Positions 5,075-49,199 of a DNA stretch of 64,000 nt are shown here, piece after piece. The stretch is from positions 1 to 64,000 of the forward strand of contig MU053645.1 in NCBI GenBank assembly GCA_013239625.1, read 5' to 3'. A program made the translations under genes and the position numbers. The notes below the pieces were generated by a model. The model did not search any database. It saw only the letters and a program-made list of their open reading frames with translations, and was not told where the DNA came from. The first letter of the stretch is position 1; each line of letters starts with the position of its first letter. Source of the stretch: Lama guanicoe (Eukaryota).

Positions 5075-5119
<45 letters not shown>

Positions 5120-9446: not shown

Positions 9447-9449
9447 ACA

Positions 9450-9828: not shown

Positions 9829-9829
9829 A

Positions 9830-19300: not shown

Positions 19301-19570
19301 GAAAACTGTCGAGAATAGGCATTGGCTAGACTGGTATTTGTGCTGATGATCCAGATCAACACAATGGCTAAACCTGACAATCCTTCCAAAGATGGAAAAG
19401 TTTGGGTAAAAATCAAAAAATGGAGAGAAGGAGCTATAGTCGTTGAGGTTATGGAATGGGCTATGGAATAATGGAAATCAATGATATTGTCTCTTCACAC
19501 AAGTATACCTTAATGCTCAAAAAGGTGAAGCCACATATTTTCATATTTTCTAAGACCATCCTTGCTTTTT

Positions 19571-19753
19571 TTTTTTTCAGACTTGGTATTCCTCAGTCGG
19601 ATTTGATTCTATTGTATTTTTTTAAACATTTTTTTGTGGGGAGGTAATTAGGTTTATTTATTTATTTATTTATTTTTAATGGTGGTACTGGGGATTGAAC
19701 CTAGGACCTTGTGCATTCTAAGTACACATTCTACCACTGAGCTATATGCCCTT
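19571..19753 (-). mobile_element. Camelid vic-1-like SINE with an extra 3' tail
   Basis: tRNA-like head at ~19683-19753. TSD ATCCTTGCTTTTT at 19558-19570 and 19754-19766. Confidence 0.9.
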
Positions 19754-21409
19754 ATCCTTGCTTTTTGAATTTGACAAGGTCAAACGGAAAACTGGAAACC
19801 TGAGTGGCATTGGTCCTGGAGACATTTTGGTCATACAATATGATAAAGATAGTCCTATAGTTAATGACTGAGTGGAACCCTAGTAATGTGCCAGTATCTT
19901 TTGACTCTTATTTTTCAGCTTTTATCTACTACAAAGGGTATTATTTTGGAAGGAATCTCCAGGAACTACTCCCTACTGGGGTATTGGTTCATGGAGTATA
20001 CAGCCCCTGGCAGACTAATTGCTGTGTAACCATGGCACTTTAACTTGCCATGATCCCATTCCAAACCATAAACTTTGATGATAACTAATTAGAAAGGTCC
20101 CTGGTTATAATGGATGAAAGGCCGCAGTAGCATTCCCGGCATGCCACAGTGTATTATGCACTGAAATAAATTACTCTTGTTTTTGTGATTGGAAAGCCAT
20201 TGAACAGAATAGAAAACAGTTTCTAATGGGAATTAAGCAGTGGACAAATCACAGATAAGTTCTAATTCTCCTAGGGAATGACCTCAACTTGAGCAATTGC
20301 CTTAGGTAAAAAAGTCATATGACAGTACTGATACGAATGATCTGATGTACTGAGTGAAAGCTTTCTCAGGATACGACACTGATAGAAAACAACTGGCCTA
20401 GGAAAAGCTGAATTTAGCTAACCATCAGCTATATTACTATGTTAAATAGTTCTTCACAAATTTATCACAAGGCACAAATAATAGTAGATTAAGAGGGGAC
20501 ATATGTAATCAAACTTGTATAAAAATATGAAAATGTTAACTTTATAGAATGGATTAATCATTTCATTAAATATATCCTTTCCCTACACTGGCTTCTCCAA
20601 CTGTTAGGCATATTTATGCTGATATTATTGTTGTATCTGTCATATAAATACTATACTGAATGTAGATGCACACAAAATATGATAATTTTTCTGTAAGAGG
20701 GCTTACAGAAGGATCCGGGCTGCTGATTGGGCAGGAAAGGATGAACTAAACTGGCCTGGATTCCTCAAACACTGCATATTCTAAAGAAAAGACTGTCTTC
20801 AGAGCCAGCCTTTGACTAACTCCTGGGAAATAATCTATGTACACTGGAATATTCTACCTAATAAGTTTGTTTTTGCATGCAGGTAAGTTTATCATTTATG
20901 CTGAAGGCCCGTTTTAGCTCAGGAATGGTAGGAGGGGCCTATATGACTGACTGCCTCCGTATCTCTGGCCACAAAGGCGCAGATGAAATTCCTTGGTTGG
21001 CAACTTCACATGAGTTGTCACACATTGTTGCGGGGGGAATTTAAGCATATCCTTGTGCAAATCCACTGGTAGGGGACATCTGGAAGCTTGAGACTGGTTT
21101 CTCCTGGACTTCATCCAATGTACATTTTCCCTTGCATATTTTGATCTATTTGACCTGAAATTTCATTGTTATAAACTGTAAATGTGAAAAAAAAACCCTG
21201 TAAATGTGGGCATAACAGCCTTTTAAAAATTTCTGTTTGAGTCCTTAGAGAAAATGATTAAGCATGAGGGTGAAACAGCTTGTGTATTGAAACATGGACC
21301 ATGTGGTAGAAAATTTAAGTGAAGACAAATAAACCAAGTTTAGTATGTTCCTTAATGTGATTTTGTTCATTAACCAATGAACCAGTTGGAGTGGTATAGG
21401 TTGGAGTGG

Positions 21410-22563
21410 CATAGGTTAGAGTGGCTGACCTCCCAACTATGAATCTGACCCTGAGAGTGATTGTATATATCCTCGTTTTCATACAATGCCACACTAATGC
21501 AAGAAATATGTAACATGTTGGTTTTGTGGCAACTGACCATGCTATCAGTTTCCGATAGATTGATCATATAGAATTACAGGCAGAAAAGGGGGGAAATCGG
21601 CATCATTTACAGGCCTATACAAAGTCTATCATCATAGGGTGTTTGTATGTGTCTGTGTCTGTGGGTTGAGGTATATGCTGGGGGTTGATGGTGCTAGACC
21701 CCTCCTATTTTGTGGGAGACAATTGCAGCTCATGTGAAGAGGATCCTGAGGGGGCTGAGTCCCCAGCCAGTTTTCCCTTCCTTGATTCTGTCAATGAAGA
21801 TGGTAGCACTGTGTGCTAGGTGGGCCAATTTGATATCTAATTTAATAAAACAAAGGCCTCTGTATTTTTCTAAGCAAGCATCCTTGTTTAAGAACGCTTT
21901 TTTTCTAGTACTTTAAAGATGTGTCATAGGTCATGATAATAGCTACATAGAGTAATAATCTTTTCACAATTTAAGAAGCACACGTAAAACGGGAAGTTAT
22001 AAAACAGGAGTTGGCAAATTTTTCATTGAAATGACAGATATTAGATACCCTATACTTTGGGGGCCATACAAGTCTCTATCCCAATTACTCAGCTCTGCCA
22101 TTGTAACAGCAAATCAGCCATAGACATCAAGATAAAAAATGAGGGCAACTATGTTCCAATAAAATTGATTTTAAAAAAAGGCAGCAGGCCAGATAGTTTG
22201 GGACCGCTGGTATAAAGGATTAGATTTTAAATGTTTGGAAAAATCTAGTGTTATCTCTCTGGGCTCCAATTCATCATCATCTTGCTTACAGCCACTCACA
22301 TAGTTGAGTATCATTTTGGAAACCAGTTCTCTAAAGCAATATTTATCTGGTTTTTTTTTCACCAGCAATTTCCATCTCAATGTGACTGCCCTTTACCTGT
22401 AGCATAAAGCACAGGTCCCTGAACAAAGACAGTTTCATGTCAGCTTAAGTGCCTGCGAGAGCAGATGGCAGGTAAGGGAAATCTGAATCTCTCAGTCAAC
22501 ACGCATTAGAGTGTGTACAGGTGCTGTGGCCAGGACTCTGATAACGCTGTTTTTCCTTTACCA
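21410..22563 (+). repeat. Inverted repeat, near-identical left core (module copy B)
   Basis: Reverse complement of 36235-37502. Mirrored ORFs 22171-22380 and 36532-36741 are identical, and 21710-21916 and 36996-37202 differ by one residue. Confidence 0.98.
22005..22212 (+). mobile_element. hAT-Charlie MER58A-like DNA transposon (mirror copy at ~36700-36907)
   Basis: caggagttggcaaa...actcagctctgccattgta...cagccatagac...gttccaataaaa. Confidence 0.85.
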
Positions 22564-23262
22564 CCTGTCTCCCATTTGGATCGGATATTTGAGAACGCTA
22601 CAGGGAGACAGGAAATTGAGGAGAGAGAGAAACAGGTTGCATTTCCTTTCTGCACCCTTATTCCTACCAGTGTTATCCCAACAAAGGCCCTTCAGCCAGC
22701 AGGGCCATGTGGTTTCAGTAGGGCCAGGAAGGACAGGTTTGCATATTTCTTCTAGTTGCAGGGATTTTGAACCTCACACCCTCTCAGAAAATTCAGCAGC
22801 ATCAGCTGCTCTTTCCCCTTTGCATCTAAGTTCTTTCCCCTTTACTCAAGAAGCCTCCTCTGTGATCATAAGGCTCAGCACCAGCCAAGCAACTCTCCCT
22901 CCTCAGAGATGAGTTCACAGGCTTGTAGGGTGACCTCTCAGAGCCCCTTTCAGAACCACCATTAACTGAGCATCCCCCTTTCCTCACAAGTTTGAGTCCC
23001 AACAAATAGGGACCCATCTTCCTCCTTTTTGGATTCTCAGACACCTTATATTCTCTTAGTTTGCCCTGCTCCAGGACTGGGAATTCCTTCCTATTCCTGC
23101 TATCTCTGTATAACATTAGTCCTCCTGTTTGTCTGTTTAGACATCACCAGCCTGTATAAGCAAGTCCCTCTATTAAATTCACATTCTTAGCAGCGTGTGG
23201 TTTCTAAACAGAAACCCGACCTCAACCTGCTTGATATACGTGTTTCTGACTGGATCCTGCCT
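22520..23262 (+). mobile_element. Ancient ERVL solo LTR (LTR41/LTR78/LTR33-like)
   Basis: 5' ccaggactctg and 3' ccctctattaaatt...gtgtggtttct...ctgactggatcctg. Related copies lie at 30410, 36010 and 48620. Confidence 0.65.
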
Positions 23263-24559
23263 TTGCTTTTTATGACTACTTCTTGGATCTGCTGATTGAG
23301 TGTCTCCTATAATTTGGGGGAAAATTCTCTGTTATTTTTCTCTTCAAATATTGCTTCTTTCCTAATCTGCCTCCCTGTCCTTCGAGGAATCCAGTAACAT
23401 ATCTCTTTGAAATCACATTTTATCTCCTAAATCTTTTACATAGTTTTTTGCATTTTCTCTCTTTTTCATTTGTACTTTTAAATCTTAACTAGCATATATT
23501 TCATTATTTCTTCCTTTGTTATGTCTAATCTGTTATACAGTAGATTCTTGATTTCAGCAATTTTCAGGAGGGGGACTGAGCTTCCAGATTTTTCCGTTTG
23601 ATTTGTTAAAATCTCTGCAGTTCTTTCAGATAAATTTTCATGAGGAATATACATTTGGATTCTAGTGAAATATCTCTACAAATGCTTTTCCAAAGCTTTC
23701 CCTTGATTTTTAATTTATCTGCTATTATTATACTCCACTTGTATTGGTTTGCATTCATTTAGGCTTAATATTTCTTCTTATATCTCCTTATGTTTTTAGA
23801 AAGTTATGTTAAGGTGCAAAACTGCACACACTTCTTATGAAATAGTGTAATGTACTGGAATAGTAAATTTGAAAGTCATCAATCTCTATGAGCTATGATC
23901 CTCTTTCCTCTTGCTTTCACATCAAATCCCCTTCATCAGTTTTGGAAATAGCATTCATAATGTTTTATTTTTGTTTGTATGTTTTCACTAAGGGTTCGTG
24001 TGGCTTTTTGTTCCAAGAGGAAACTATGTAGAATGATTTTCCAAACATATGAGAGTTTTATATGAATTATACAATATTGGCTATATTTTTATACCTAATA
24101 TTTTCTATGTTAATATTTTAAAAATTCCCCTATTTAAATGGTTGCACAACTTTCTAATTTCTCCTTATACAACAAGTGACTTTGTCAATTCTATATAATA
24201 ACACCTTGCTCTTTTTATCAGTTTTTTATGACAAAAGAAAATGCAATAAATAATCCTTTGAACATGGGCACTATTTACCTGTTAGTGCAGCCCAGGGCTG
24301 AAGAACTGCTGAAGTACGCAAGTAGTAATCTTTCCTGAGAGTTAGCAAATTTGGAATTCTCGTCTCCAAAAAAGAAGTTACTATCAGCTTTGTAACCCAA
24401 ACCCAATAAATAATTTAATTACAATAGTAATGAAATTCTCACCTTGATATCACAAGGCATGAAGGGCAAAATGGCAACTTTAAAATGATACTGGCTTGCA
24501 AAACCAAAAGCAGAATATGAATTTTTCTGAGGGAATGGATAAGCAAAGAAGGCAAAATT

Positions 24560-24860
24560 CAAGGTGGAATTAAAAAACAAAATGGAAGGACATGCTGTCA
24601 ATGAAAAAGGTGGAGTAGAGAGCTCCAAAATCTCATACTTCCAAAAAAGCAGCAAGTCAATTGGAAAAAAAGTAAAAATTTACTTTATGAGAATTCTGGA
24701 AACAGAAAAAAAGTTTTCAGAAACCAGGTAAATGTTTAATAAAGAAAAAACAATAGAATCTCAGTAAGAGAGCTCTGTGGCACTTTAACTTGCCATGATC
24801 CCATTCCAAACTTCCCGAGGAAGCCCAGACATTTGACTTAATAGACAAAATCTTAAATAA
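24560..24860 (+). mobile_element. Old LINE-1 5' region fragments
   Basis: Similar to the L1 5' region at 60700-60830 (gtaagagag...gtg.cact/attttaactt). Confidence 0.55.
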
Positions 24861-25713
24861 CAAAGACACTAGCCAATGCTCAGCATTCCACTCAGTGAGC
24901 CTCCAGTAACCTCATGCTCATTACCAAGTCTTTGACATTCTTTCTAAGCATGCTCATATTAAGAAACATGACATTATTTAGGTCCCCTTACCCCACATAA
25001 ACCTCCAAAACAAACACTTAAGAAAGGGGTTATCAGACTCTAACTTCCAAACTAATATATTGATAAGGCATGAATGTTTCTTATATGACTGCAGGCTTCA
25101 TTTCTTGTATAGAAATTTAATCATCAACGAAAGAGCAAATGTGCAAAATTCAGTGTCATAAAATATATTAGAAAATGTAAAGTACTTATTTGGGAATATT
25201 ATTGCTTGATCATCCTCAACATACTGTGAAGTTAATGTGTGGAGGATTCCTTGTAGTAATATTTGCCCTTTATGTTGATTTAATTGTGAATTCTCACCTT
25301 GCAGCCTTATTTTATTTAAGGATAAATTGAAGTACTGGATACTTGTGTATGCCCAAGGTCCTCTGAGAAATTGGGGGTAGATAAAAACTTGTTGGGTGAT
25401 GTTCTGTATCCTAAAATGATCACATTGTTCTAAAGGTGTATACGAATCTAGCAATAGAGGGTATATTGGGACAGAGACAAAGAATAAGATGACAGGGCAG
25501 TTTAATGGTTTTACTGAAGAGATTTCCATATCAATTGTTTAAGAATATATTCTCTTTTGGTAGAAAAACATAACTCAAATTATTATTTCTGAGGTTTGTG
25601 GAATGTGCCCCATCAAAGTGATTCACATCAAGATGCAGATGTGAAAATATGCTATGGTATTGTTTTAAAAGGCTATTCATAGAGTTTATTTTAAAAAAAA
25701 GTATGGATGAAGA

Positions 25714-26170
25714 ATTTGTCTTTCTCTGTCTGACTTCACTAAACATAACACCCTCCAGATTTTTCCATGTTGTTGCAATGGCAAAATTAAAATTCTTTTA
25801 TATGGCTGAGTGATATTTCATTGGAGATATATACCACAGCTTCTTTATCAAATACTCTATGTTTTCACTTACATGTGGAATCTAAAAAATAAAGCAAATA
25901 AATGAATATAACAAAACAGAAACAGACTCACAGATAAAGAGAACAAACGAGTGATTACATTTGGGGAGAGGGGTGGGGGAGGGCAAGATGAGGGAAGGGG
26001 ACTAAGAAGTACAAACTATGAGGTGTAAAATAAATAAGCTATAGGGAATATAATCAATTTTTTATAATAACTTTCAGTGGAGTACAACCTATAAAAATAT
26101 CGAATTGCTATGTTGTGCACCTGAAACTAATATTGTAAATCAACTATACTTCAATAAAAAATAATAAAAA
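25714..26170 (+). mobile_element. 5'-inverted, truncated LINE-1 3' end
   Basis: 25714-25850 is antisense and 25851-26170 is sense with a poly-A. The two pieces are adjacent in L1 order. Confidence 0.8.
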
Positions 26171-26488
26171 TACATGTATGGGTAGAATAAAAAAGCCTGG
26201 GGGGATAGACACTCATGTTTACACTGAAACTCTCAACCAATTCTTAGAATTTTCAGTGAGCGTTCCTACGATGAGGGGGAACAAAGAGATGTAAACAATA
26301 TATACCCTTGTGTTAAACAAAACACTGTTTTGAGAGGGAGACACTTAGACATACAGGCTAGCCTTGTTGTTGGGTGATGGTGGAATATTCCACGGGCTGG
26401 AGAGTCTTGCCTGTGAAACTTGTCTCTAGTTGCCCTAGTGTCCTTGGGTGTGTTTCCCTTTTAGTCTCGCTGTGCAGATTATCAGCTC

Positions 26489-26507
26489 TGGTCAGCAGGT
26501 GGCACTT
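26489..26507 (+). promoter_or_regulatory. CTCF-binding motif candidate
   Basis: TGGTCAGCAGGTGGCACTT compared with the core consensus TGGCCACCAGGGGGCGCTA. Confidence 0.6.
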
Positions 26508-26982
26508 ACCTATATTCCTGTGACTCCTCAGAACACAGAGGTATTACATTTATTTTTTTTGAAAAAGATGCTTATAACACAACATGGGGCAAAATACGAA
26601 CATGCATGCAAAAAACCATGCCTGCAATGGAATAACAATGTTGCTTACACAAAGTGAGGTAGAACGCTACGTAGTGATGTGGAATGATAAGTTGCATGAA
26701 AAATGAAAAATGCCACTGAAATAGGGGATACTGACTCTCGCGTTTCCTCTCATTAACTGAGGAGAACGGATCCTCTGAACATTCATGTAGGGTGCGCACC
26801 AACATGAGGGATATAGTAGACCTAATCTCACCATTTTGCAATGCAGTTGGCATTTTGCATTCTGATCCATTACTGTGTTGTGTTTTTTGGAAACAAACGG
26901 TGAGAGAGAGTTGATGTTTTGAAAGTCAGCTTACGAGACTATATGAAGCAGATTGATGGCCACCTTCCTGAATTCTATAAGA

Positions 26983-27185
26983 ACAATTGTTCTCAAACTT
27001 TTTGTTCTGAAGACCCCCAAAAGATTTGTTTAGGTGGCTTATGCCTGCCAGTATTTGAAAATTAGAAAATAATGCTAAACATTTAAAATGTATTTATTTA
27101 TTCATTAAAAATAACAATGTTAAACATTTCATGCTTAAATTAAAAGCATATGCTTTTTGAAAAATAACTATATTTTTGAAAACTA
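26983..27185 (+). mobile_element. hAT Charlie1-like fragment
   Basis: gttctcaaactttttg...gacccc...gaaaaataactatatttt. Confidence 0.65.
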
Positions 27186-27214
27186 AAAGGTTTTATTTTT
27201 TATCAGCCTTTTAA

Positions 27215-27345
27215 AGGTAAGAGACATTATTACCTTATTTCACCAAAATGGAGACAAAGGAACAAAGTGGTTAAGCAGCAATCGGAAAGTCACATGGTTG
27301 ATGAGTGGCAGAGTTGAGACACAAACCCTCATCTGTCTTTCAGAA
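27215..27345 (-). mobile_element. MIR fragment
   Basis: ggttaag...aagtcacatgg...gagtggcagagttgaga...aaaccc. Confidence 0.6.
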
Positions 27346-27580
27346 GGCTCTGATTTAAAATGAGTGACCATGAAAACATCCCACTATTCACCCTTCTGGA
27401 GAAACTAGCTAGGCTAGATCATGGGTCTTGACAACTACCTCCATTTCCTGTGCCCTAAGAACCTGTTGAAATCCTTTACGTAGTTTGTGCACTGGTGTAT
27501 CTCTAATTCAGCATGGCCCTTCTTTTGTGGATTCCCAAGTAGACAGGGGTGATTTTGTTTTGCTCTAGAGTGCACAGATC

Positions 27581-27785
27581 CAGTGATGTGCTGGAGCTGG
27601 CTCAGACCAGTGCACGAGAGCTGAGTCTCTGCGTCACTTGCCGATGCAGCTTTCAGTGACATCATCTTGGTGGCTAAAAATAGTTGGGCACAGTAGGGGG
27701 ATTTTAAACCAAGGAAAGTGGAAATCCTGGAAACCAGAACGGCACACCTCCTCCCCTGGGTACCCGTTTCATGCGCATTACTGCC
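27581..27785 (+). mobile_element. hAT-Blackjack MER63-like element
   Basis: cagtgatgtgctggagctggctc...ttcagtgacatcatcttggtggct. Confidence 0.7.
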
Positions 27786-28269
27786 CAGCCCCGGCCACGC
27801 AGGCATTGTCTCTAGGCTTATTATAGGAGAAAGTGCTGCGTCATAGTGCAGAACTGTCTAATATGAATGACTGCGTGGCAGAACTTGCGTGTGCTTGTGG
27901 ACCCTGATAACTTTGTGCAGTCCTTATCAACCTTGCTAAAATTAAAAAAAAAATCTTCACATGGTTTTAAGAAACCTACCTCTAAGCGTATTATTCACTG
28001 CCAGTGTGGTTTTAGCATTACCTGGGCATAGCAGATTCCCAAACGTGAGATAATTAGCTTTATCTCCCTGCCGTCCTAGGACACGGGATGCTTTGTGGGA
28101 GCTGTTGTGCTTTTTGGAAAGTGTTTTCTCCTTGCAGCCCCAATAACATACATTTGTCCAACTGTAGGCACAGTTTCCTTTGGCCCTGGCAAAACCTGAT
28201 TTTCTAGTTTGCCTTCCTCTGACATCCAGACACTTGCTGCTCGGCAGGTCATTTTAAAGTGACCAACAA

Positions 28270-29460
28270 TCCACTGGCTTCCACCTGCACAAATGCACCT
28301 GGACTCTTGGGTACAGCAGGCTGAAAGGTGGTTTGTAACAGAAACTGGAACATGAATCTGTGTCTCTAACAGGGGAACCATACTTCTTAACCCCTCTTTA
28401 CTTCCTTGATAATCCCTTCTGCTAAAAGCTTCCTTTCTCTAAATGCCTGTTCCATGGAGAACTTCAAGTATTATCTCTAATATTCATTCATTCGTTAGAT
28501 TGGGAATGGTATAAGCGACTAAGATCAAGAGCAACATGCAGCTTCTGAGGATGTACGTGCATTTCCCGGTTTCCTCAGAAAGCTAACATCAACAAGAACA
28601 TTTTGATGACATTCTGGTTTCTATGACAACTTGCATATGCCATTTTATCCTAGAGGCAGAAACATTTAACAATGATGTTTACAGGCTGGATGGATTAGCA
28701 GCAAAAATATGCAGCCTAGTAGGTGACTACTATCACTGTGAGATAGTTTGTGTGTGCATGTTTGTGTATGTGTGTTTTGGAAAGGTGAGGTGTTTAGTTG
28801 GAGATTAGGTGCTATAAAGCCTCCTGTTTTATTGAAGAAGCTGGAAATTCCTATTAAAGAGATCCTGAGGTAATGAGTCAACTTTCTGTGTTCTGTGTCC
28901 TAAGATGACACTTGTTGTGTGAGGGCATTGTGATCTGAGATCTTTAAAGCAGAGGTCTCCAATTATTTCTGATCTTACATTTCTGTTTTAAAAAGAAATT
29001 TGCTTATACCCTAAGGATGTACTTTGCTCATTTTATATCTACTTCTACTAAAAAAAGATGATGTCTATGTTACGGGAGAGAAAATTTGAAGTCAAAATAT
29101 GATGAGCTAAAACGGGTAGGATTGGAAGCTCTAATGTGACTTTGTGGAACTGCAGGGTTAATATGGTGCTCACCTTGAGCAGCTGACACATAGATTAAGA
29201 AAGATCTTCTTTTTAAAAGACAAATTTGCTGTCATCACACCACTAATTAAAATCTGTAAATGGCTCCCCGTTTAAGCATAAGTTACAAGCTCCTTAACAA
29301 AGTTTCTGATTTTTGTGTGTGTGTGGTTTAGGAAGTAGCTGTTGCTGGTGTTATAGTTATTTCTGTATTTATTATGTTTCAAAAGGAAGTCATAGCATCT
29401 AAAGGAATTACTGTTGCATTTATTGTCAGGATATGTGCTTTAGAAAGAAGTGAGTACTAT
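28270..29460 (+). repeat. Module copy C
   Basis: Shares blocks with copy A (atgacaact, ctatcactgtga, ttttattgaagaagct, ttctgtgtcctaa). Confidence 0.8.
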
Positions 29461-30007
29461 GCCTCTCTCTCTCGGCACCAAATCTTACACACTGCTCTTT
29501 GATGCTGAGACTCTAATGCTATTGTTAAATGAACTCTTGTCCAAGTTATTATTTATCTCAATAATTAATAAGGGAACCTATAAACTATTAAACAGTTTTC
29601 AAATAAGAATTTGAGATACCGAGCTTGTTTTTCTATAGGACAAATTGTATGTGCTTTGCTAAGAATAGGAATCATTTACATTGCTATGAACAAGAAATAA
29701 CAGCAATACTGTCTGTTTTCTACATGAATGTTTATGTCTCTTATAGATTGGTAAAGTTGTCTAATCAATCAAATACAATGAAAAGGCCATCTGTCTACAG
29801 AATGAACTAGCCAATCCCTGGAGGGCCCATTAGCCAATGCCTGACGTTCCACTGTAGGGCCCCGGTAATCTCTTGTGCCTATTTTCAAGTCTTTGACATG
29901 TTTTCCAGGCAGAGTGGTATTAAGAGCTCAAATTTTAAGAGAATTCCTCACTAGTAGAATTTTTTTTTTCTCTTCATTCCCTGCATAAGTGCTCAAAGTT
30001 ACCACTC

Positions 30008-30026
30008 TGGCCAGTAGGTGGCACTT
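30008..30026 (+). promoter_or_regulatory. CTCF-binding motif candidate
   Basis: TGGCCAGTAGGTGGCACTT, in a context paralogous to 26489. Confidence 0.7.
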
Positions 30027-30039
30027 GTGATATCGTGCT

Positions 30040-30370
30040 CATTGTGTGCAGCTGACACACTAATGAATAAATATTGTCAATAAACATTCTCTTTATTTAT
30101 TCTCAGTAAAGGAAATAAACAAGTTTCCTGCCATCACACCACTAACTGAAGCCTGTAAATGGCTCTCTGTCTATTATATAAACATAAGATAAGAGTTCCT
30201 TAACAAATGATCTGGATTTTTGGTTTTGCATTTTAGAAAATGGATGTTGCTAATGTTAGAATTACCTCTGTATTTATTGTGTTTCAGAAGAAATGCATAA
30301 TATCTGCAAGACTTGCTGTTGCATTCTTTGTCAGCTATATGCTTTAGGAAGAAGTAGGTCCTGGTTAAAG
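30040..30370 (+). repeat. Direct duplicate of 29170-29460
   Basis: Both copies contain catcacaccactaa...ctgtaaatggctc...tccttaacaaa...ctgtatttatt.tgtttca...ctgttgcatt. Confidence 0.9.
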
Positions 30371-30409
30371 GATAGCAAAGTCTTTTGGCTCCATATCCTG
30401 TACACTGTT

Positions 30410-30900
30410 CATGATACTGAGACCAGGAGTCTGCCAAGTCCATTACCAACCTGCTCCCTGTTGGACTCTGCCAGTCAGGTTTACCAAAGGGAGACAGGAA
30501 AGAGAAGCAGAATGGACCTTCCTCTCTGGTCCTAGGTCTCCCAATGTCACTTGAATAAAGGCCCTAAGCAAAAATAAGGCGATATGATTTCAGTAGGGGC
30601 AGAATATCTAAAATACATTTTTTTCATCCAAATTTCAAGGACTTGATTTATCAGGTCCCCTCAGAAAGATCAGTGCTAGCACACTGGTGAACTAACTCTC
30701 TCTCTCTCTCTCCAGGGTTCTGGGTCTCAACTTTGAGGGTGGCCTCCTCTGAGATTCCGATGCTCTGGCATGAGCAGAGGAAGGACCCCTCATCTAAACT
30801 CATGAGTTCTCAGAACTGCTATATTTTCGCTTGTTTTCTCCAGACCTAAGAGTTCTAGCCCATTCTTACCTCTGCTATCTCCACATTACTTCATAGTTTC
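30410..30900 (+). mobile_element. ERVL solo LTR (LTR41-like), related to 22520-23262
   Basis: ccaggagtctg...agggagacaggaaa...aaaggccct...tttcagtaggg. Confidence 0.55.
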
Positions 30901-31085
30901 CCTTATGCCTTTTTCAGCCTCAAAACAATTCTAAGTTAACTCTGACTGAAAAAAAAGAAAGAAAAGAAAGAAGAAAAAAGAGGGCTCTTGCTTGTTAATC
31001 ATGACTGTTTTTGGTTTTGTTTCTTCTCTTTTCTGTTTTTCTCCTTGGCTTTGTTTTCTGTTTACTACAACTGGCCTAGGGGTGG

Positions 31086-31087
31086 GG

Positions 31088-31126
<39 letters not shown>
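31086..31126. repeat. (TG)n microsatellite
   Basis: Visible run. Confidence 0.95.
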
Positions 31127-32819
31127 AAGGTTATGTTTGTTTTTCAAACACATCTTAAATATTCTACTTGATTTTTGTTCATTATTTTGGAAAATTCTCC
31201 GCTGTTGTCCCTTCCAATATTTTTACTTTCCCAGAATCTCTCCTGGAACTCCTTACATACCTCTTAGGTGTTTCAGTATATACATTTGAAAAAGAAATAT
31301 TTCCTTTGATCAATATAAAATATCAGCCTAAGAACTTTTCAAAGATCTTTTCCTTATGTTTTCTTTGTATGGGACCATTTTGCTACCATTGATTACTTTC
31401 TTTTTGTTCACTTATATCTGATAGCTCATTTCATGCCTCCTTAAATTCTCTATAAAGTTATATTTAAGTGTATATGTACATATAAAAACACCCTCTGTGT
31501 AATATTTTACAATATGATGGGGAAAAATCAAGTTTCCCTTTACTATTCGTTTCCATTTTTGTTACTCTCTTGTTTCATGTGTAACTATGTTATCAGATTT
31601 CCGTTTACCATTCAAGACTCATTTGTACCCCATTTTATCCTGAGATAAACATACATAGCATTGCTCTCTACGTGTAGTATAGTGTTTTACATGACCTGTA
31701 TCATTTGCACTTCGTTGATCTCTAAGCTTATTATATTAACTGGAATTTTTCTTCTGTGTCAATGCATTTAGCTCTGCATCAGTCTTTGTAATGGATAAAT
31801 AACACATCCTTCTTGGCTTAGACTATCAATTTTTAAGCCTGTCCCGTGGATAACACATTGCTATATCCAATTATGTCATTGTGGTTATAATGAACTATGA
31901 TGCAATGACTTATCTTGTGTACATGAGCAATTTCTTATCCTTGTGCACGACACAGGGGAATTGATAGGGTCTGAAAGACACATCTTGTTCCCTCACTTGA
32001 ATGTTAATAATTACAAAGGTCTCACCTTTAGGAAAAGAAACTACTCTTCACTTTTTAACCGAAAACACTATGCTTGATATTATTACAATTACAGGGCACA
32101 CTAGATACCTTTCCTATGGCAGGGTAATAGGGACTGAAGGGTTAAAGAGCACCTTGGAAAGAAAGTTGTCCTGCTGGACTGGAGAAACAATCTGAGTTTT
32201 GTAAAGGAATGGGCTTTGAAAGGGAGGGTATTCACTCTAGTCTTAAAATAATGTCTTAAAGATAAACCATGAGTGTTGCAAAGTTCTTTTTCTGAAGTGC
32301 TCATGTTTTCACTTTGCTAAGTAGGAGACGGTCTGGTCTTCTAAGGCATCTACCTGAAGAATAGGTTTTGTGACTGGTTATTTGTTTAGAGAACAATCAG
32401 GAGTCAGAGATTCAGTACTGAAAGTTTGGTAACGTGAATATGTGTATGCATATTTACAGTCATACGATATAATTCAGAAAATGAGGAATAAGTCTAACCT
32501 AATTTATTCCGAATTAGCAAACTGAGGGCAATTTTGTGCATCCTCAGATTGCAATAGTTGCCATTTAAATGCTATGGACAAAAGACAACCTTCCTAAAAT
32601 GAGGCACGACCCCTCTGAAGAAATATATGAATTGGTGAACAACGTAAAAGGACAATTTTAAAGACAGAAATTCTTATGTAATTGTTCTGAAAATTCACTG
32701 CTAACCTAATGGTATCTTATAAACTTTTTAAAAATGTACATGGGAAAATATATGCTAAAATTAATCCGGAGAGGAAAAGGTGCAATAATAGGCAATAATG
32801 TGTTTTCCTTATAAATACA

Positions 32820-33830
32820 ATTTTATAGACTGTGCCTTTATTATGGTAAGGGGAAATTCTTACTCATATTTTATGAAACTACTTTTCTGGGCAGCCTTTA
32901 AAATTATAAATCCTAAAGATTACAAGAGCTTTGCTAAATAGTAATTGTAGTCAGGAGTCCAAGGGGTAAAGATGAAAAGAAATGAATTACTTCCTCCTGG
33001 TAATGGTGTGGTGGCTTTTTTTTTTTAATTAAGAAAATTATCCTGATTTTGAGAGAATTCCTTGCCGAAGATTATCTTTTTTCCCCAGTAGTTATTAAAG
33101 CCCTCACTTAAGAAAGGAGTTAACAAAATAGAGCTTCCAAAATAATTCCTCCAAAAACCATGGCTGTTGATTGGAGAAATAAAGTTAATTTGCAGCTAAT
33201 TCTTCCATTCTTTAACTAAAGAGTGAATGTCATACATAGAACAAAAATTAAACAGGGACTTTGAAAAATTAAAATACTCAATTGAAGAATTTATTTCTTA
33301 ATGATCTAAAATTGACCATGATATTGTACATTTCAGAACTTTCAATTATAGTATTTCCTTATTGTTATAATTTCATTGTGTACTCAGTCTTTTTAGACAG
33401 TGTTTGGCTGAACTCTAAAGTGCAATATCAGATATACTTTTATACCCATGGACCTTTGAGAAATTGAATTTATTTGAAAAAATTAGTATGGTATTTTTCA
33501 ACATTCTATGGCATTGGTACTGGTGTGCAAAAGGGGATCAATATTTATATATCTTCATTTTTCTCTCTGTCTCTTGTGAATGTGGAGTGTGTGTGTATGT
33601 GTGTGTGTGTGCTGGAGTGTGGGGAGGTTTTTGTTTGGAGGCTAATCAATCTGATTTTATGGAAAAAGTTTATAAGTCCTGCTGAGGGGAAACTGGAGTG
33701 ACTGAATCACTATTTTTCCCTCTCTTTTTTTTCCCTGTGTCCTCAGATGACACCTGTAGTTTGAGAGCTGATTTGTCTCTGAGTTCTCTAAAACAGAGGC
33801 CTCCAAAGCTGTACGATCACATACGCCGTC
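32820..33830 (+). repeat. Module copy D (uninterrupted paralog of 14220-14750 plus 21273-21870)
   Basis: aatagagcttccaaa vs aatatagcttccaaa; tagtatttcctta vs tagtatgttcctta; ctgtgtcctcagatgacac vs ctgtgtcctaagatgacac; aaaacagaggcctc. Confidence 0.7.
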
Positions 33831-35109
33831 CAAGAAAAATGCTTGTGCAGATTATCACCAAAATATGTATATTTAAATATCATAACGTATTTCATATCAT
33901 ACACACAAGTATGTGAAAAGAAACATACACATATATGATTTATCATGGGAATAATTTTTACATTATGAAACATAAACTTTGAAGTCAATAATACATGAGC
34001 TAAAATATACAAGTGAATTATAATACATGTTTCTACAATGAATACAGAAAATTGGAAAAATATATCGCAATCCATTAACACAGTATATCTGAGTGGGAAG
34101 GTGGCAAGTCACACTGAGAAAACAATTTCATCTTTCACATTATTCACTTCTGTATTGCTCAAAATTTTTAAAAATACATTTTGGAAACACTGAAGACATT
34201 TAAAAAAAAAGATATCCCGGTAAAATGATGTTGAAAATATTTATTTACGTGAGAAGGTGGTCAAATGTGCTGTTGAATGAAGAAATATAGTTTTATATAA
34301 TATGTGCATGTATGTGTGTACAGATGCATAGGAAATGTGTTGGAAGCACATGCACCATAATATTAACAGTGAATGTCTTCTCTGTATTTCTTTCTACATA
34401 TATTTTAGTTCCTCTAAGCTCCTTAAAGTTGTTTTAGAACAAAAATATATCAACATCAGGGACCCTAGTTTGGTTGCATACACACGAGAACATTCTCTCT
34501 CTCTGTCACACACACACACACGGTACTATTAAATCTTTGTGTCCAAAAAGGATGCTATCATGAAAGCAGTAGTTCTGAAATAGGAATGGATTAGCATAAC
34601 CTAAGTAACATAATTTGGAAATATTTTGATATGCAGCAGAAGGAGGAAATAAATATATCATCTACAATATAGCTGATATTAAGTTATCACACCTCTTTCA
34701 GAATAACATATGTTCTAGAATCGGTGTGGGGAATATTGTTAATTAAGTTTGTTCAATTGGTTTGATTTCCTTCCTGCTTTGTACTTTATGGATTGACATT
34801 AGAAATGCACAGTACCCGGATTACCACATTTGATGCCATTTGAGCCCTGGAAAAGCAGTGTACCTCAGAAGCGCTGAACAGGGCAAAGGCTCTGGTGGAC
34901 AGGAGTTGGAGTGAGAATCAAGAGATCCAGCCAGCAGAACCAGATCTACCATGGTCCGTATAATATTGGATAAGACTGTTCCCATTTTCCTAAACATGTT
35001 TTTGAGATCGTTTTATGTTGAGATTTTATGGCACAATTGATTTTCTCCTTGCTCTACAGCTACTATATGCAGGTTGCAGCTGAAGGCCTGTACCTCAAGT
35101 AATCTTATA

Positions 35110-36010
35110 TTTTTAATTGCTATAAATATATATATATATTATGCAATTTTCCATCTAACCATTCTAAGTGTACAGATTCATATTGTTATGCAATCATCGC
35201 CACCATCCATCTCCAGAATTTTTTCATCTTTCAAAATTGAAACTCTGTACCTATTAAATATCTCCCCATTCCATTCTCCACTCAGTGCATGAGAAACACC
35301 ATTCTACTTTCTATCTCTATGAATTCGACTACTCTGAGTTTGAGGTACTTTTTAATACTCACATAAGTGGAATCATATGTTATCGGTCCTTTTGTGATTT
35401 GTTTTTTTCACTTAGCATAATGTCTACAAGATTCAGTATTGTTGTAGCATGTGTCAGAATCTCCTTCTTTTTGAAGGCTGGATAATTTTCCATTGTATGA
35501 CTATAACACATTCTGTTTATTCATCTCAAAATCAGCATGGCTTACTTCCACATTTTGGCTATTATGAATAATGCTGCTGTGAACATGGGTGTACAAATAT
35601 CTGTTTGAGTCTCCAACTTCAATTCTTTTGGGTGTATAGCTAGGGGTAGAATTGGTAGATCATAATTCTATTTTCATTTATAAAATTACATTTAACTTTA
35701 TAAAAGTAAAATATTTAAATTTTAATTTTATACATAATTCTATTTAAAAAATTTGTGATGGTCCACCATAATGATTTCCATAATGCTGCCCCAGACTACC
35801 TTCCCACCAGCAATGTACAAGGCTTCTAATTTCTCCACATTCTTGCCAAGGTTTGATACTTTCTGTTTTGTTTCGTTGTTTTGTTTCGTTGTTTTGTTTG
35901 TTTGTTGTTGTTGTTGTTGCTTGGATAATAGCCATCCTAATAGGTGTGAAGTAGTGTGGCACTGAGGCTTTAAATTGAATTCCTCTAATGATTAATGACA
36001 TTGAACATAT
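35110..36010 (-). mobile_element. LINE-1 3' part (L1MB-like)
   Basis: Antisense 3' UTR and ORF2 C-terminus. ORF 35744-36034 contains SLIIRGIQFK...YFTPIRMAII. Confidence 0.85.
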
Positions 36011-36234
36011 TTTCTGAGGGGGTGCAATATCCAATGTCCCTGAAATTAGAAGAAAATTTACAAACTGGTCTTTCTTGCCCCTACAGGAACTACATAGCCC
36101 TGCTGGCTGAAGGCCTTTGTTGGGATGACACTGACAGAGAGCAAGAAGAATCAGAAAGGAAATGTAAGCTGCTTCTCTTTCCTCTTGATTTCCTGTCTCC
36201 CTGTGGCATTCTGAATGATCAGACCCAAATGGTT
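36010..36234 (-). repeat. Diverged inner flank of the right arm (LTR part), mirror of 22564-22790
   Basis: ccctgctggctgaaggcctttgttgggatgacactg vs cagtgttatcccaacaaaggcccttcagccagcaggg, with many substitutions and indels around it. Confidence 0.85.
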
Positions 36235-37502
36235 GGTAAAGGAAAAACAGTTATCAGAGTCCTGGCCACAGCACCTGTACACACTCTAATGCGTGTTGAC
36301 TGAGAGATTCAGATTTCCCTTACCTGCCATCTGCTTCCTCTTAAAGTGCATTTCATACAAGGAAGTCAGCAATAAGTACTGAGAAGACTATGCTTCTCTC
36401 TGAAAACATAATTAATAGAATGAATTACTAACTGCATCATCAACAATATCTCCTCGCAGGCACTTAAGCTGACATGAAACTGTCTTTGTTCAGGGACCTG
36501 TGCTTTATGCTACAGGTAAAGGGCAGTCACATTGAGATGGAAATTGCTGGTGAAAAAAAAACCAGATAAATATTGCTTTAGAGAACTGGTTTCCAAAATG
36601 ATACTCAACTATGTGAGTGGCTGTAAGCAAGATGATGATGAATTGGAGCCCAGAGAGATAACACTAGATTTTTCCAAACATTTAAAATCTAATCCTTTAT
36701 ACCAGCGGTCCCAAACTATCTGGCCTGCTGCCTTTTTTTAAAATCAATTTTATTGGAACATAGTTGCCCTCATTTTTTATCTTGATGTCTATGGCTGATT
36801 TGCTGTTACAATGGCAGAGCTGAGTAATTGGGATAGAGACTTGTATGGCCCCCAAAGTATAGGGTATCTAATATCTGTCATTTCAATGAAAAATTTGCCA
36901 ACTCCTGTTTTATAACTTCCCGTTTTACGTGTGCTTCTTAAATTGTGAAAAGATTATTACTCTATGTAGCTATTATCATGACCTATGACACATCTTTAAA
37001 GTACTAGAAAAAAAGCGTTCTTAAACAAGGATGCTTGCTTAGAAAAATACAGAGGCCTTTGTTTTATTAAATTAGATATCAAATTGGCCCACCTAGCACA
37101 CAGTGCTACCATCTTCGTTGACAGAATCAAGGAAGGGAAAACTGGCTGGGGACTCAGCCCCCTCAGGATCCTCTTCACATGAGCTGCAATTGTCTCCCAC
37201 AAAATAGGAGGGATCTAGCACCATCAACCCCCAGCATATACCTCAACCCACAGACACAGACACATACAAACACCCTATGATGATAGACTTTGTATAGGCC
37301 TGTAAATGATGCCGATTTCCCCCCTTTTCTGCCTGTAATTCTATATGATCAATCTATCGGAAACTGATAGCATGGTCAGTTGCCACAAAACCAACATGTT
37401 ACATATTTCTTGCATTAGTGTGGCATTGTATGAAAACGAGGATATATACAATCACTCTCAGGGTCAGATTCATAGTTGGGAGGTCAGCCACTCTACCCTA
37501 TG
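36235..37502 (-). repeat. Inverted repeat, near-identical right core (module copy B')
   Basis: Reverse complement of 21410-22563, plus a 117-bp segment (36336-36452) missing from the left core. Confidence 0.98.
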
Positions 37503-39489
37503 CCACTCCGACTAACCAATGAACAAAAACTTATTAAGGAATATACTAGCAGCCTTTAAATAGTAGGTATTTCATGAGCCAAACTTTCCAAACAATGGTA
37601 ACAAAGAAATTTTTGGCTTGTTTATAGGCTCAGATTTCTCATAGACTCACTGTCAGGATTAACTTGGAACCAACAATACCACATGCTTGGTCCTGAAGGG
37701 ATGCCAAAATCTGCAGACCTTTAAAGTTGTCTCCAATACTCAATTGCCACAGTTGAGCCCTGAACTCAGGAACAGGGAAGAGGCATTGGAAACATCTCAG
37801 ATGCCCTTAACTTAGTGCCTCAGGACAGACTTCCACGTCAAGGAGGCTCTGACTGCCACCATTGACCAACAGAAATACACACTCAATTCTACTAAAGTTG
37901 TGTCACAGGAATTCCCGATAGCAGACTGTGGTGCACAGAATATTCAGTCAGTTCCTCACACTGATCTATTACCTCAGCCTTCAGGCATAAGTCACTGCAA
38001 CCCCAGTTGCCAAGAAATTCCCTTGGCACTTGAATCACAAGATGGATATATACTTTCTGTGACTCATTAAATTTATCATTAGAGCATCAGCATCATACCA
38101 GATGACAATGTCTAAACATGTGACTCACATTGCTATGACTGAGTAAATGAAGTAGAAGAGAAGATGTCAGAACCTGACATTGTGATGACTCTGTGCAGAA
38201 CATTGGGCTAAAGCAATATACAGGAAAGTTTTTTTTTGTTTTTTTGAATACAGAAGTTATCATCAGAGATTCTTTTGTTATAACGGGCTGTCACGATGGT
38301 AAGTTGGTTGGTGTGGGTGGAATGCCCACAAGCTCTCAGGATACTTTGTATAAATATCATGATAGGAGAAGGTAGAGATATCAAAGCCTTCAGGTACAGA
38401 GGCAGGCAAGCCTCACATGGATTTACTGTCTAGGCCAAAACAGGCAGTCAATATATGGAAAATATATATGAAGATAATAGGAAGAAGGAAAAGAGTTCTG
38501 ACAAGAGGTTGAACTCCCACAGACTGCCCTCTGTTTGACAAACACTGAGAAATGAATTTCAACAAGTGACATTTAGGAATTTACTTCCCTTAGGAAATGC
38601 TGGAATTTACACACTGCCAATGGTAATGATGTTCAGTTGTATGACTCTTACAGATATGATAGATTAAGAATTTTGAAAAGAAACTGAATGAGGGTTGACA
38701 AGGAACTCCCTGATTTATTAAGGTTCACAAATATATATATAGTTTCTGTCACACATAGCTATTCAGCTTAAGAGAGACACAACTGTTACAGTGAATCTCA
38801 GAATTAAAAACAAAGAGAAAATCCCCTTTGTCATCAGTCCTGGGCTGTCTTATTCAAGAAGCCACCACATTCTTCCTGGGATACACAGAAATAAGGCCAG
38901 GTGGGACAGTCATTGCATGTGTATAAGTGAAGGAAAGTTTTCAGTAGTTTCTCTATGAGGGAAAAACCAAGACAGATATCATGACCCACATTACAGCTCT
39001 TATAATTTTTTCATGGATGTAAAATAGTAGGGTGGGTCCATGGGTAGCTTTCCCACCAGAGAATCATTCAGTAAGTTAGTTGAGGTTTGAGTGTGGTTCT
39101 GCTACTCAAGCCATGCATGGCTATAAGCATTTTTCTTAGCTGCTCTGTTTCCAAGTCTCCCTTTCTAACAAAGAGACAAAATATCAACATCTCTTCAATG
39201 CAAGGATTGATTAGAGGTCACAAACATGCACTGTATTTTATGTGGAATATCAAGGATGAATAAAAGTGTTAAAAAAAGTCCAAGGTTATTTCTGGTAGTA
39301 TGGAGGGGACCACAGTTCATGGGAATATAAGACTTCAGTCTAGAAATGCTGGGCTCCAATTGTTGGCATTTAAATTGCCAGCCGATAAATATTTAGATAT
39401 TTTTCTAAACTTTCTCAGCATGCTGCGTGGGGAAGGAAAATGAGATTTATTACACACCCTCAAGTTCACAGTAAGGAAACATTAAAAAA

Positions 39490-39790
39490 AAAAGACAATA
39501 GACATAGGAAACAAAGTATGGTTACCAAAAGGGAAAGAGTGGGGAAGTGTTAAATAAGGAGTTCGAGATTAACATATAAATACATTACTATATATAAAAT
39601 AGATAAACAAGAAGGACCTACTGTATAGCACAGGGAACTATATTCAATTTCTTGTAATAACATATAATGGAAAAGAATCTGAAAAAAATGTGTCTATATA
39701 TATATATATAACCAAATCGCTTTGCTGTACATCTGAAACTAACACAGTAAATCGACTACACTTATATAAAAAAATGAAATTAAAAAAGAC
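39490..39790 (+). mobile_element. LINE-1 3' UTR
   Basis: atggttaccaaaaggg...ctactgtatagcacagggaactatattcaa. Confidence 0.9.
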
Positions 39791-40483
39791 AATAGCCAGT
39801 GAATAGTAAAAGTTACCTTCTTCAAAAACAAAGAATTTCAAATGCAAAAGCATCCCAATATTTTCACCTCATAAGACTGGTAAAACAAACAAAAAATAAT
39901 GGCAAAATCAGATTATCCGAAGTTTGAAGAAACAGGTACCGGGGGCTTGGAGGAGGGTTTGTTTCCCAAGGTCACACAGGAGGGATGTGGAACATGCAAA
40001 TCAGAACTCAGATTAACCAACCACCAAAGTAGGCAGGTATCTCTCCCTAGTATTCATCGCCATAGAAATGCTTATTAAAAATCTTTTTTAAAACTGGTAA
40101 AAATATTATTGTCAATATTTGAGTCTCTCTTTTTCTTTTTGTCTTTATATTTCTAAAACTAAAAAGTCTATTTTTCTGGTTCTGCACCAGATTTCAACAT
40201 ACTTTATAGTTCATATTATTATATCACTTAGAAAGTGTGAATTACGTTCATAGTGTATTTCCTACATACCCTCAAAATATAAATATCATTTTTTCCTGAT
40301 AAAAATGATGCATGCTTATATGTAAACAAATAATAAGAAAATCCCTTTCATAAAAAAGGTCTAAATGAACTGGCACAGCACTCAGAGTTCCCTTCTCATT
40401 ATATCCTTTACTACCAAGTTTATATATAAACTTCCAGTAATTTCATTTCATTTTCTTTACCCATAGAGATCTCATTCTCTCAT

Positions 40484-40592
40484 TTCTCTCTCTCTCTCTT
40501 CCTTTCCTTTCTTTCTTTCCTTCTTTCCTTCTTTCTTTCTCTCTCTCTCTCTCTCTTTCCTTCCTTCCTTCCTTCTTTCTTCCTTTCTCCCT
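40484..40592. repeat. (TC)n/(TTCC)n/(TTTC)n polypyrimidine repeat
   Basis: Visible runs. Confidence 0.9.
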
Positions 40593-40829
40593 TTGGTCAT
40601 TAGTACATACATTGAACAATACCTAGCCCATTAAAGTATCCCTCAAAATCTCAGAAATTTTCAGCTTTTACAAATATTCAAATATTTGTACTGACCCAGA
40701 TCTTCTAGAACCTGGTTTAATATTTAAATACAAACTCAAATTAATATAAATAACAGATATTTATCTCACCCAATCTATGACCGATTAATTCATAGTTTTT
40801 TAATGATCATCAAGAAATAAAATATCTAA

Positions 40830-42648: not shown

Positions 42649-43840
42649 AATGGCAGCCACAACAATCAGGCAAGAAAAAAAAATAAAAGGGATCCAAATT
42701 GGAAGAGAAGAGGTAAAACTGTCACTATATGCAGGTGACATGGTACTATATATAGAAAACCTTAAAAGCTCCACACAAAAACTACTAGAGCTGATAAAAG
42801 AATTTGGCAAGGTAGAAGATACAAGATTAACATACAAAAATCAGTTGCATCATTTGTAAATATTTTCTCCCATTCCATAGATTGTCTTGTTTTGCTTACG
42901 GTTTCCTTTGCTATGCAAAAGCTTGTAAGTTTAATTAGGTCCCATTTGTTTATTTTTGCTCTTACTTCTATTGTCCCTTATCTTTTTTTTCAATAATGCT
43001 TTGGCAGTTCCGAGTCTCTTGTGATTCCATATAAATTTTAGGATTGTTTGTTCTAGTTCTGTAAAAAATGTCCTGGTTAATTTGATAGGGATCACATTAA
43101 ATCTGTAGATTGCCTTGGGCAGTATGGCCATTTTAATGATATTGATTCTTCCAATCCAAGAGCATGGGATATCTTTCCATTTCTTTAAGTCATCTTTAAT
43201 TTCCTTAATCAATATTTTGTAGTTCTCTATGTATGTCTTTTACCTCCTTGGTCAGATTTATTCCTAAGTATTTTATTGTTTTGGATGTGATTTTAAAAGG
43301 GATTGTTTCTTTACTTTCTTTTCCTGCTAATTCATTGTTAGTGTAAAGAAATGCAACTGATTATATTCTTTTTCGTAGTTTTTTGTTTTAGGCTTATTAG
43401 AAGATATTGAATATATTTCCCTGTGCTATATAGTAGGACCTTGTTGTTTATCTATTTTATATATAGTAGTTTGTATCTGCTAATCCCAAACTCCAATTTA
43501 TCCCTCCCCTCCTTATCCTTTTGGTTTGTTTTCTATGTCTGTGATAATATAATATATTCACTATCTTGTAATAAATATATAATAAAAAATATGAAAAAGA
43601 ATATATACCTGTATATATAACTGAGTCACTATGCTGAATATAGTTCCCTGTGCTATTGATGTTTACCTATTTTATATATAGTAGTTAGTACCTACAAATC
43701 CTAAACTCCTAATTTATCCCTTCCCACCCCCTTTGCCCCCTGGGAACCATAAATTTGTTCTCTATGTCCATGAGTTTGTTTCTGTTTTGTAGATAAGTTC
43801 ATTTGTGTCAATTTTTTTTTTAGATTCCACATATAAGGAA
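42649..43840. mobile_element. Rearranged younger LINE-1 (sense ORF2 piece, then antisense ORF2 and 3' UTR pieces)
   Basis: ORF 42641-42859 (+) [20 protein letters not shown] and ORF 42931-43212 (-) [28 protein letters not shown]. Confidence 0.9.
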
Positions 43841-43859
43841 ACTTTTACACTAAAAGAGT

Positions 43860-47323: not shown

Positions 47324-47357
47324 AAAGAATTGAAAAATGGGACAGTAGTTTTTTAAA

Positions 47358-49150: not shown

Positions 49151-49199
49151 TCTCTCTCTCTCTCTCTGTCATTCTCTCCTTCTCTCTCTCCTTCCTGTT

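Follow-up and report, generated by a model that had tools for sequence, protein, structure and literature searches.

An old inverted duplication in Lama guanicoe with a short near-identical core, probably kept uniform by gene conversion between its arms

The window analysed here comprises 64,000 nucleotides of Lama guanicoe (assembly GCA_013239625.1, contig MU053645.1, positions 1 to 64,000) and contains an inverted duplication that became a palindrome, the arms of which now span at least 10 kb. On balance, the inner 1.2 kb of this old palindrome has probably been kept uniform by long-running arm-to-arm gene conversion, with occasional inversion of the spacer and with two CTCF-like motifs as passengers. 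Structures of this type, palindromes whose inner arms undergo gene conversion, are already known.

The near-identical core consists of 21400..22459 (+) and 36453..37512 (-), which are 99.6% complementary over 1,060 bp (1,056/1,060 identical) and share exact blocks of 282, 95 and 664 bp. The 664-bp block is the longest exact inverted match in the window; the longest such match was just 16-23 bp in 20/20 order-3 Markov controls and fell to 31 bp when the right arm was masked. The near-identical inverted cores of the original prediction are present. Two substitutions were counted in 1,117 bp of the near-identical core, and the arm copies differ by four substitutions, one of which is a CpG transition, as well as by small indels and by a 117-bp deletion that shows microhomology. 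Past the deletion in the left arm, alignment to the right arm continues the identical tract inward through 22460..22563 (+), with 74/74 positions identical at 22460..22533 and 102/102 ungapped columns identical up to 22563, plus two small indels. The inner edge of the tract lies at about 22563 and 36236, in agreement with the spacer limits proposed earlier (22564..36234), and the homogenised tract totals approximately 1.1-1.3 kb. Each arm measures about 1.3 kb between unique flanks, and the arm midpoints are 15 kb apart. Highly identical inverted repeats are located on either side of a unique segment, a layout that, judged from its sequence, can be inverted by NAHR. The arm comparison rests on one sequence; the 64-kb window contains no N.

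The left inner residual tail (22564..22795, +), which we take to be an old LTR-like piece, is 77-80% identical to 36235-36009 (-). On the right, the inner tail and the inner identical piece occupy 36009..36335 (-) in the arm alignment. The outer residual tail (21340..21376, +) has its partner at about 37549-37513, with 26/31 columns identical. A lesion is present at the outer boundary of the left arm only (21371..21425) and consists of a 12-bp fold-back micro-inversion, which looks template-switch-like, and an extra 15-bp tandem unit. The 117-bp ancestral segment deleted from the left arm is present in the right arm (36336..36452, -) and can be aligned to the module copies at 29.3 kb and 30.2 kb; the deletion junction shows short direct microhomology. 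Heterologies sit at the ends of the homogenised tract on both sides. Because identity runs 74 bp past the deletion (P ~7e-8 at an 80% background), the homogenised tract included the deleted segment, and on this alignment the deletion is placed within the tract.

This core forms the innermost part of an inverted duplication that is far larger and older, with the near-identical tract embedded in diverged homology of greater age. Across the tails and outer arms, identity is just 72-84%; the strata are 72-77% for the outer arms, 77-84% for the tails and approximately 99.8% for the core. The left outer arm (12966..14757, +; module pieces R, X, flank and Y) is 72-77% identical to 45140-43836 (-) over aligned stretches of 493, 392 and 345 bp, and its Y piece pairs with 40877-40735 (-). 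Inside the left arm follows a decayed provirus relic (approximately 14756..21260, +), presumably of the ERVL class, with direct LTR-like repeats at 14756-15253 and 20728-21181 that are 65-67% identical; module Y seems to continue after this relic in a weak alignment. The right outer arm (37513..45140, -) contains, by paralog alignments, R, Q, P, T, Y, L1 insertions, X and R. Further module pieces extend over 45140..49200 (-), with no counterpart found in 1-13000. X pieces across the array copies are 45-61% alike. The outer arms are decayed, and a deletion and insertions of ERVL and L1 elements have fragmented them. The larger duplication around the core was absent from the original prediction.

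The 13.7-kb spacer (22564..36235) holds decayed module copies on the plus strand and two L1 fragments, and no gene was found in it. The copy at 27216..29514 (+; P-Q-R-X-Z0), probably copy C of the original prediction, is paralogous to 39198-36290 (-) and 46341-44206 (-), and its X piece shows 53-61% identity to the other copies. The copy at 29827..33825 (+; V-CTCF2-Z0-Z-U-W-Y-X, by paralog alignments) is probably copy D. The polarity of the array switches at 34005..36014, where the paralog search left sequence without a paralog in the window, together with an L1 fragment (35160-36014) by which the right arm is cut short. The modules continue crosswise, in the outward direction at the right arm and in the inward direction at the left.

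None of the 196 stop-free frames of at least 45 aa in the 64-kb window reached the Pfam cut-off, in a scan with little power to detect exons that are degraded or very short; its sensitivity to decayed genes is low, because four L1/ERVL control frames gave no true match. An IGFL match at 28058-28204 (E 0.0078), below the cut-off, was rejected as chance because it is missing from both paralogous copies. Rfam yielded just four tRNA-like SINE matches over the window and nothing else significant in 10-52 kb. A cluster of non-coding RNAs (miRNA or snoRNA) was rejected, with no Rfam support and no hairpin common to the module copies by eye, as were relics of antigen-receptor, defensin, zinc-finger, olfactory, V1R or KRTAP genes, with 0 matches to RSS and protein motifs. 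No usable indication of earlier orientations came from strand skews. With no gene found, the host array of ancient modules appears to be decayed and gene-free.

Two CTCF-like motifs had been predicted on the plus strand of the spacer, and each 19-mer occurs once in the window, at 26489..26507 (+; 19.5 bits) and at 30008..30026 (+; 23.5 bits). Scored with an approximate matrix close to JASPAR MA0139.1, both are strong core motifs, as expected of CTCF loop anchors, and they are the two best in 64 kb; the next best site has 13.5 bits, and no further site above this value was found in the window as a convergent partner. The expectation is approximately 0.014 sites of at least 19 bits per 13.7 kb. 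The motifs have 17/19 bases in common (P ~8e-4 from 77,625 simulated pairs of independent strong sites), and their descent from a common source is therefore likely as far as sequence can tell. They are more alike than their flanks, as the original prediction held. Its placement of both in paralogous contexts is borne out for the motifs and some 37 bp around them and fails further out: none of eight flank comparisons (30-250 bp, both sides) was significant (p 0.08-0.74), the sole match between the two regions is 37 bp long (E 0.89), and the other copies are without the motif. At the position homologous to the 30008 motif, neither the two arms nor the 29.1-kb module copy has a motif. No paralog of the 26489 context was found in profile searches or at the matching place of the right arm. 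The zone around 26489 is locally CpG-retaining, its CpG O/E over 300-500 bp being 0.38-0.41, which ranks in the top 0.3-2% of window tiles; this retention is not seen within 150 bp, and the 30008 motif shows no CpG excess.

The proposed course of events begins with an ancient non-coding module array, in which the palindrome would have arisen by inverted duplication, some tens of millions of years ago. The innermost 1.2 kb, edged by small indels and the micro-inversion, would have gone on exchanging between the arms, probably by germline non-crossover gene conversion; the latest conversion may date, under assumed mutation rates, to roughly the last 0.05-2 million years. In a minority of exchanges, resolution by crossover could turn the spacer around, which has plausibly happened over evolutionary time; such flips are plausible also because the identity strata imply long-running exchange. 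The CTCF motifs would probably represent an unexceptional tandem pair, with one or both bound, that is carried passively in the spacer. Substitutions in the arms show a weak and marginal GC-ward drift (W>S 84, S>W 63) relative to the paralogous copies (148 and 166), with a pooled Fisher p of 0.046 and significance against only 1/4 paralogs taken singly. Palindrome conversion has been reported with the same GC-ward direction (PMC8981503). By analogy, conversion should usually be commoner than inversion: 146 conversions versus 3 inversions, with a mean tract of 2 kb, are given for Y palindrome P6 (PMC3723533). Spacers of X palindromes were inverted in approximately 50% of species comparisons (PMC8327919). 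All 12 conserved primate X palindromes have a protein-coding gene in an arm or spacer (PMC8327919); unlike them, the present one has no gene that was found, and therefore nothing explains why its arms were kept.

There is no clear intermediate stratum between approximately 82% and 99.8% identity, which also fits a single recent overwrite, in which one long conversion or template-switch repair would have copied about 1.25 kb from arm to arm, followed by the 117-bp deletion and by no long-term exchange. Identity indeed steps abruptly from about 82% to about 100%, and the fold-back micro-inversion and the tandem 15-mer are located exactly at the outer edge; fold-back micro-inversions and tandem duplicates are typical of template switching. 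The weak GC drift, however, suggests repeated conversion, and the overwrite would need homology-directed copying between the arms, which is inefficient between sequences 20% diverged; a single event is considered unlikely. An assembly artefact, with the sequence of one arm placed twice or both arms made uniform by polishing, could account for 99.8% identity, a value within the range of allelic differences. It is very unlikely, given that each arm has its own diverged outer and inner tails and that the copies differ by the four substitutions, the deletion and small indels in a window without N.

Compatible with long-running conversion, but itself doubtful, is the reading that both spacer orientations segregate in camelids today as a recurrent and probably neutral NAHR inversion. 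The 664 bp of exact identity and the 15 kb between arm midpoints come near the layouts of HsInv0114 (2.7-kb repeats, 14.7 kb) and HsInv0209, where the likely breakpoint is a 782-bp block of 99.9% identity within 94% repeats (PMC3961182), and 155/612 human candidate regions with inverted repeats are polymorphic (PMC13629690). Only 6/319 unselected human inverted duplication pairs are polymorphic, however, a figure biased low because already known inversions were left out of the set (PMC13629690). Recurrence is predicted mainly by repeat length, and 23/32 recurrent autosomal and X inversions have repeats of at least 10 kb (Porubsky preprint). Crosswise module continuity would be expected if the spacer had already flipped relative to the ancestral array, but lost or displaced left relics explain it equally well; positions 1-12.9 kb appear by eye to be mostly mobile elements, and the missing left relics could therefore lie outside the window. 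None of the papers listed in a literature search deals with camelid inversions. Of the invertible cassette originally predicted, the NAHR-capable layout stands, and an in silico flip does put both motifs on the minus strand. A functional chromatin-loop switch is unsupported, with no gene found in the window, and appears highly improbable. It would have both orientations segregate, redirect CTCF/cohesin loops and change the expression of neighbour genes, with the arms kept for that purpose, a scenario given hardly any credence. In its favour are two strong same-strand motifs inside the spacer, probably of common descent and more alike than their flanks, the CpG retention around 26489, which hints at a germline-unmethylated element, and the dependence of loop direction on motif orientation (PMC7087399). 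Against it, no gene was found in 64 kb, and the motif is lost in the arm copies and in the 29.1-kb copy. Inversion in engineered loci alters looping direction and leaves insulation unchanged, and the insulation of a tandem pair outlasted inversion in mice (PMC7087399). For IgH hs1.2, the closest natural case, orientation is deemed irrelevant by its authors (PMC3068965). It is similarly far-fetched that a gene-free mini-palindrome, recombinogenic for tens of Myr, might toggle tandem CTCF anchors through orientations that segregate in living camelids and redirect loops to left or right neighbour genes, as a natural and heritable loop switch.

The locus is a clean small example of an old palindrome shrinking to a short converted core edged by indels. 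As a candidate for a hidden inversion in camelids it is, moreover, inexpensive to examine, since arms of about 1.3 kb are within reach of standard long reads or of a four-primer PCR. Should both orientations exist and CTCF bind, the locus would offer a natural experiment on the orientation of CTCF sites, a subject studied mostly with engineered alleles; a search largely outside the subscription journals found no natural inversion mediated by repeats that had been examined for CTCF direction.

Among known systems, the tandem CTCF insulators such as Pcdh HS5-1 (PMC7087399) likewise have two same-orientation motifs a few kb apart; there, binding and targets are known and inversions were engineered, whereas the present motifs are predicted from sequence. 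In the IgH 3' regulatory region the hs1.2 enhancer lies between inverted repeats of about 3 kb, as candidate CTCF motifs lie between the arms here, and its orientation differs between species and paralogs (PMC3068965). The hs1.2 element is a tested enhancer beside a known gene, in contrast to the predicted CTCF motifs here, whose surroundings are rich in AT and L1 and show no immunoglobulin features. The palindromes of the primate X and Y (PMC8327919, PMC3723533, PMC8981503) share the arm identity above 99%, the spacer, the insertions and deletions near the centre and, at marginal significance here, the weak GC-ward drift. Large sex-chromosome palindromes have arms of more than 8 kb at >99% (PMC8327919), whereas only about 1.2 kb exceeds 99% here and the outer arms are at 72-77%; conserved primate palindromes carry genes (PMC8327919), and none was found here among 196 ORFs by Pfam. 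Human NAHR inversions were shown in both orientations, unlike the one orientation in one sequence available here, and the identical core of 1.1-1.3 kb is below their smallest validated repeat of 1.6 kb (Table 1, PMC3961182). The locus resembles human NAHR inversions such as HsInv0114, HsInv0347 and HsInv0209 in its kb-scale inverted repeats about 7-15 kb apart and in its short near-perfect block within more diverged repeats, often with no gene nearby (PMC3961182).

The two arms bracketing the 13.7-kb spacer (22564-36235), at 21400-22459 on the plus strand and 36453-37512 on the minus strand, are identical at 1,056 of 1,060 bases, and two of the four differences fall within the outermost 17 bases. 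The longest exact block measures 664 bp, far above chance: in each of 20 controls it was only 16-23 bp. A 117-bp segment of the right arm (36336-36452) is absent from the left arm; the gap is attributed to a deletion from the left arm because two other module copies share the segment. Inward of this deletion 74/74 bases are identical, followed by 102/102 ungapped columns with two small indels; farther inward, identity drops to 77-80% across approximately 230 bp. The outer edge is marked, in the left arm, by a fold-back micro-inversion and an additional 15-bp unit, outside of which the tail matches at 26/31. The micro-inversion (12 bp) and the tandem 15-bp unit lie at 21371-21425, precisely where the converted tract ends on its outer side, and this lesion resembles a brief template-switch event.

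The strata of identity were observed to be nested, the ends of the tract to coincide with heterologies, and the homogenised tract to include a deletion. The arms would have undergone repeated strand exchange in the germline, resolved mostly as conversion, and the weak GC-ward drift of the arm sequence (84:63 vs 148:166, p 0.046; significant in one of four single comparisons) agrees with such a history. Exchanges of this type are known to yield crossovers now and then, which invert the spacer of a palindrome. At assumed rates of 1.5-3e-9 changes per site per year, the latest homogenisation dates to approximately 0.3-0.6 My ago (95% range 0.04-2.2; 2 changes in 1,117 bp), and the diverged tails of the arms to approximately 40-90 My. 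For the Y palindrome P6, 3 inversions are reported alongside 146 conversions (PMC3723533), and the spacer orientation of X palindromes differs in about half of the species comparisons (PMC8327919).

Sensitive self-searches identified a decayed array of ancient, non-coding modules at 12.9-49.2 kb, with plus polarity left of approximately 34 kb and minus polarity right of 36 kb. Most copies of the module piece X are 45-61% alike in pairs. The block starting at 12966 on the left and the block from 45140 on the right are sisters (72-77%), and the module piece Y is found on each side; the near-identical core therefore forms the innermost part of an old palindrome. The left arm of this palindrome contains an ERVL-like insertion and lacks the module pieces T-P-Q-R; the right arm contains L1 insertions and terminates at an L1 (36009). 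The ERVL-like element is a decayed provirus relic (14756-21260) inserted in module Y, broken throughout, with two LTR-like ends of 65-67% identity. A 34-bp exact direct match links this relic (20033-20066) to the spacer (24778-24811), 4.7 kb apart and in unrelated surroundings; it is possibly a small templated insertion. Six X copies, including both arms, occur in the array (12900-49200), whose modules have old mobile-element fragments in common at corresponding positions. The X copies have also retained short motifs in common, a CAACTG core and TGA[G/A]TCA, the latter AP-1-like.

The window is AT-rich (GC 36%, CpG O/E 0.16) and mobile elements are abundant. The repeat-class labels L1, ERVL, LTR33-like, MER58-like, L2 and MIR are our assignments by eye, and the four tRNA-like matches are taken to be camelid-type SINEs. 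An L1 3' fragment in the spacer (25714-26170) switches strand internally near 25850, as in twin-primed insertion. The window scans, which decayed or tiny exons can escape, revealed neither a gene nor an RNA family.

The observations behind the original prediction were largely confirmed: the arms are real, and CTCF-like motifs are located on the plus strand at 26489-26507 and 30008-30026. With a matrix close to JASPAR MA0139.1, these are the two top CTCF sites in the window, at 19.5 bits for the motif at 26489 and 23.5 bits for that at 30008, against approximately 0.014 sites expected by chance per 13.7 kb at 19 bits or more; the next best scores 13.5 bits, and no partner motif above that value is present in the window. 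The motifs agree at 17/19 bases, which is unlikely for independent sites (P ~8e-4) and makes descent from one ancestral site probable; selection may have maintained them. The paralogous contexts also described for them were recovered only in part: the flanks do not align (0/8 tests significant; best match 37 bp, E 0.89). The site homologous to the 30008 motif is non-motif in both arms and in the module copy near 29.1 kb. A younger tandem duplication within the spacer (29146-29514 vs 30020-30426, 71% identity) has the CTCF motif in the second copy only. CpG retention near 26489 is elevated at 300 bp (top 2% of tiles) and 500 bp (top 0.3%), but not at the 150-bp scale, nor near 30008. A CpG-retaining zone at 26200-28300 (O/E 0.4-0.45 vs 0.16 overall) covers the first motif, contains a hairpin-forming DNA-transposon-like fragment at approximately 27580-27730, and may be a regulatory element.

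In silico, a crossover within the core would put the motifs on the minus strand, at 32405-32423 and 28886-28904, reversing both as had been proposed. The ancestral module order continues beyond the right arm in the outward direction but beyond the left arm in the inward direction; the right arm is interrupted at its inner end, and past 12966 the left block leaves no relic. Such a crosswise order is what would be seen if the spacer had been turned round with respect to the ancestral array, whether when the palindrome arose or afterwards. The stretch 1-12.9 kb, however, looks by eye to be mostly mobile elements, and displaced or deleted left relics would account for the order equally well. Base rates for present-day polymorphism of such inversions, judged from human data, are modest: 155/612 candidate regions with inverted repeats are polymorphic, as are only 6/319 unselected inverted duplication pairs (PMC13629690); any short-repeat cases in the inversion tables of its supplements would shift these rates. 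Recurrence is driven by repeat length, with repeats of at least 10 kb in 23/32 recurrent inversions (bioRxiv 10.1101/2021.12.20.472354). In Table 1 of PMC3961182, validated repeats go down to 1.6 kb in length, although HsInv0209 probably has its breakpoint in a 782-bp perfect block within longer repeats (same source).

The proposed interpretation is partly supported: the spacer is invertible in its architecture, as predicted. The chromatin-loop switch predicted with it is considered highly improbable; no target gene for it was found in the window. CTCF orientation sets loop direction, but insulation was independent of orientation in engineered Pcdh alleles, tandem-pair inversion included (PMC7087399). 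No natural case of such a switch was found described in the literature, of which coverage was incomplete. The structure belongs to a kind already known: an inverted repeat, probably homogenised by conversion, that encloses an invertible spacer. IgH inversions in birds are the subject of bioRxiv 10.64898/2026.09.05.749481, from which no support is drawn. The nearest natural counterpart of the proposed switch is IgH hs1.2, an element flanked by inverted repeats of approximately 3 kb, which is flipped between species and paralogs and whose orientation is considered irrelevant by its authors (PMC3068965).
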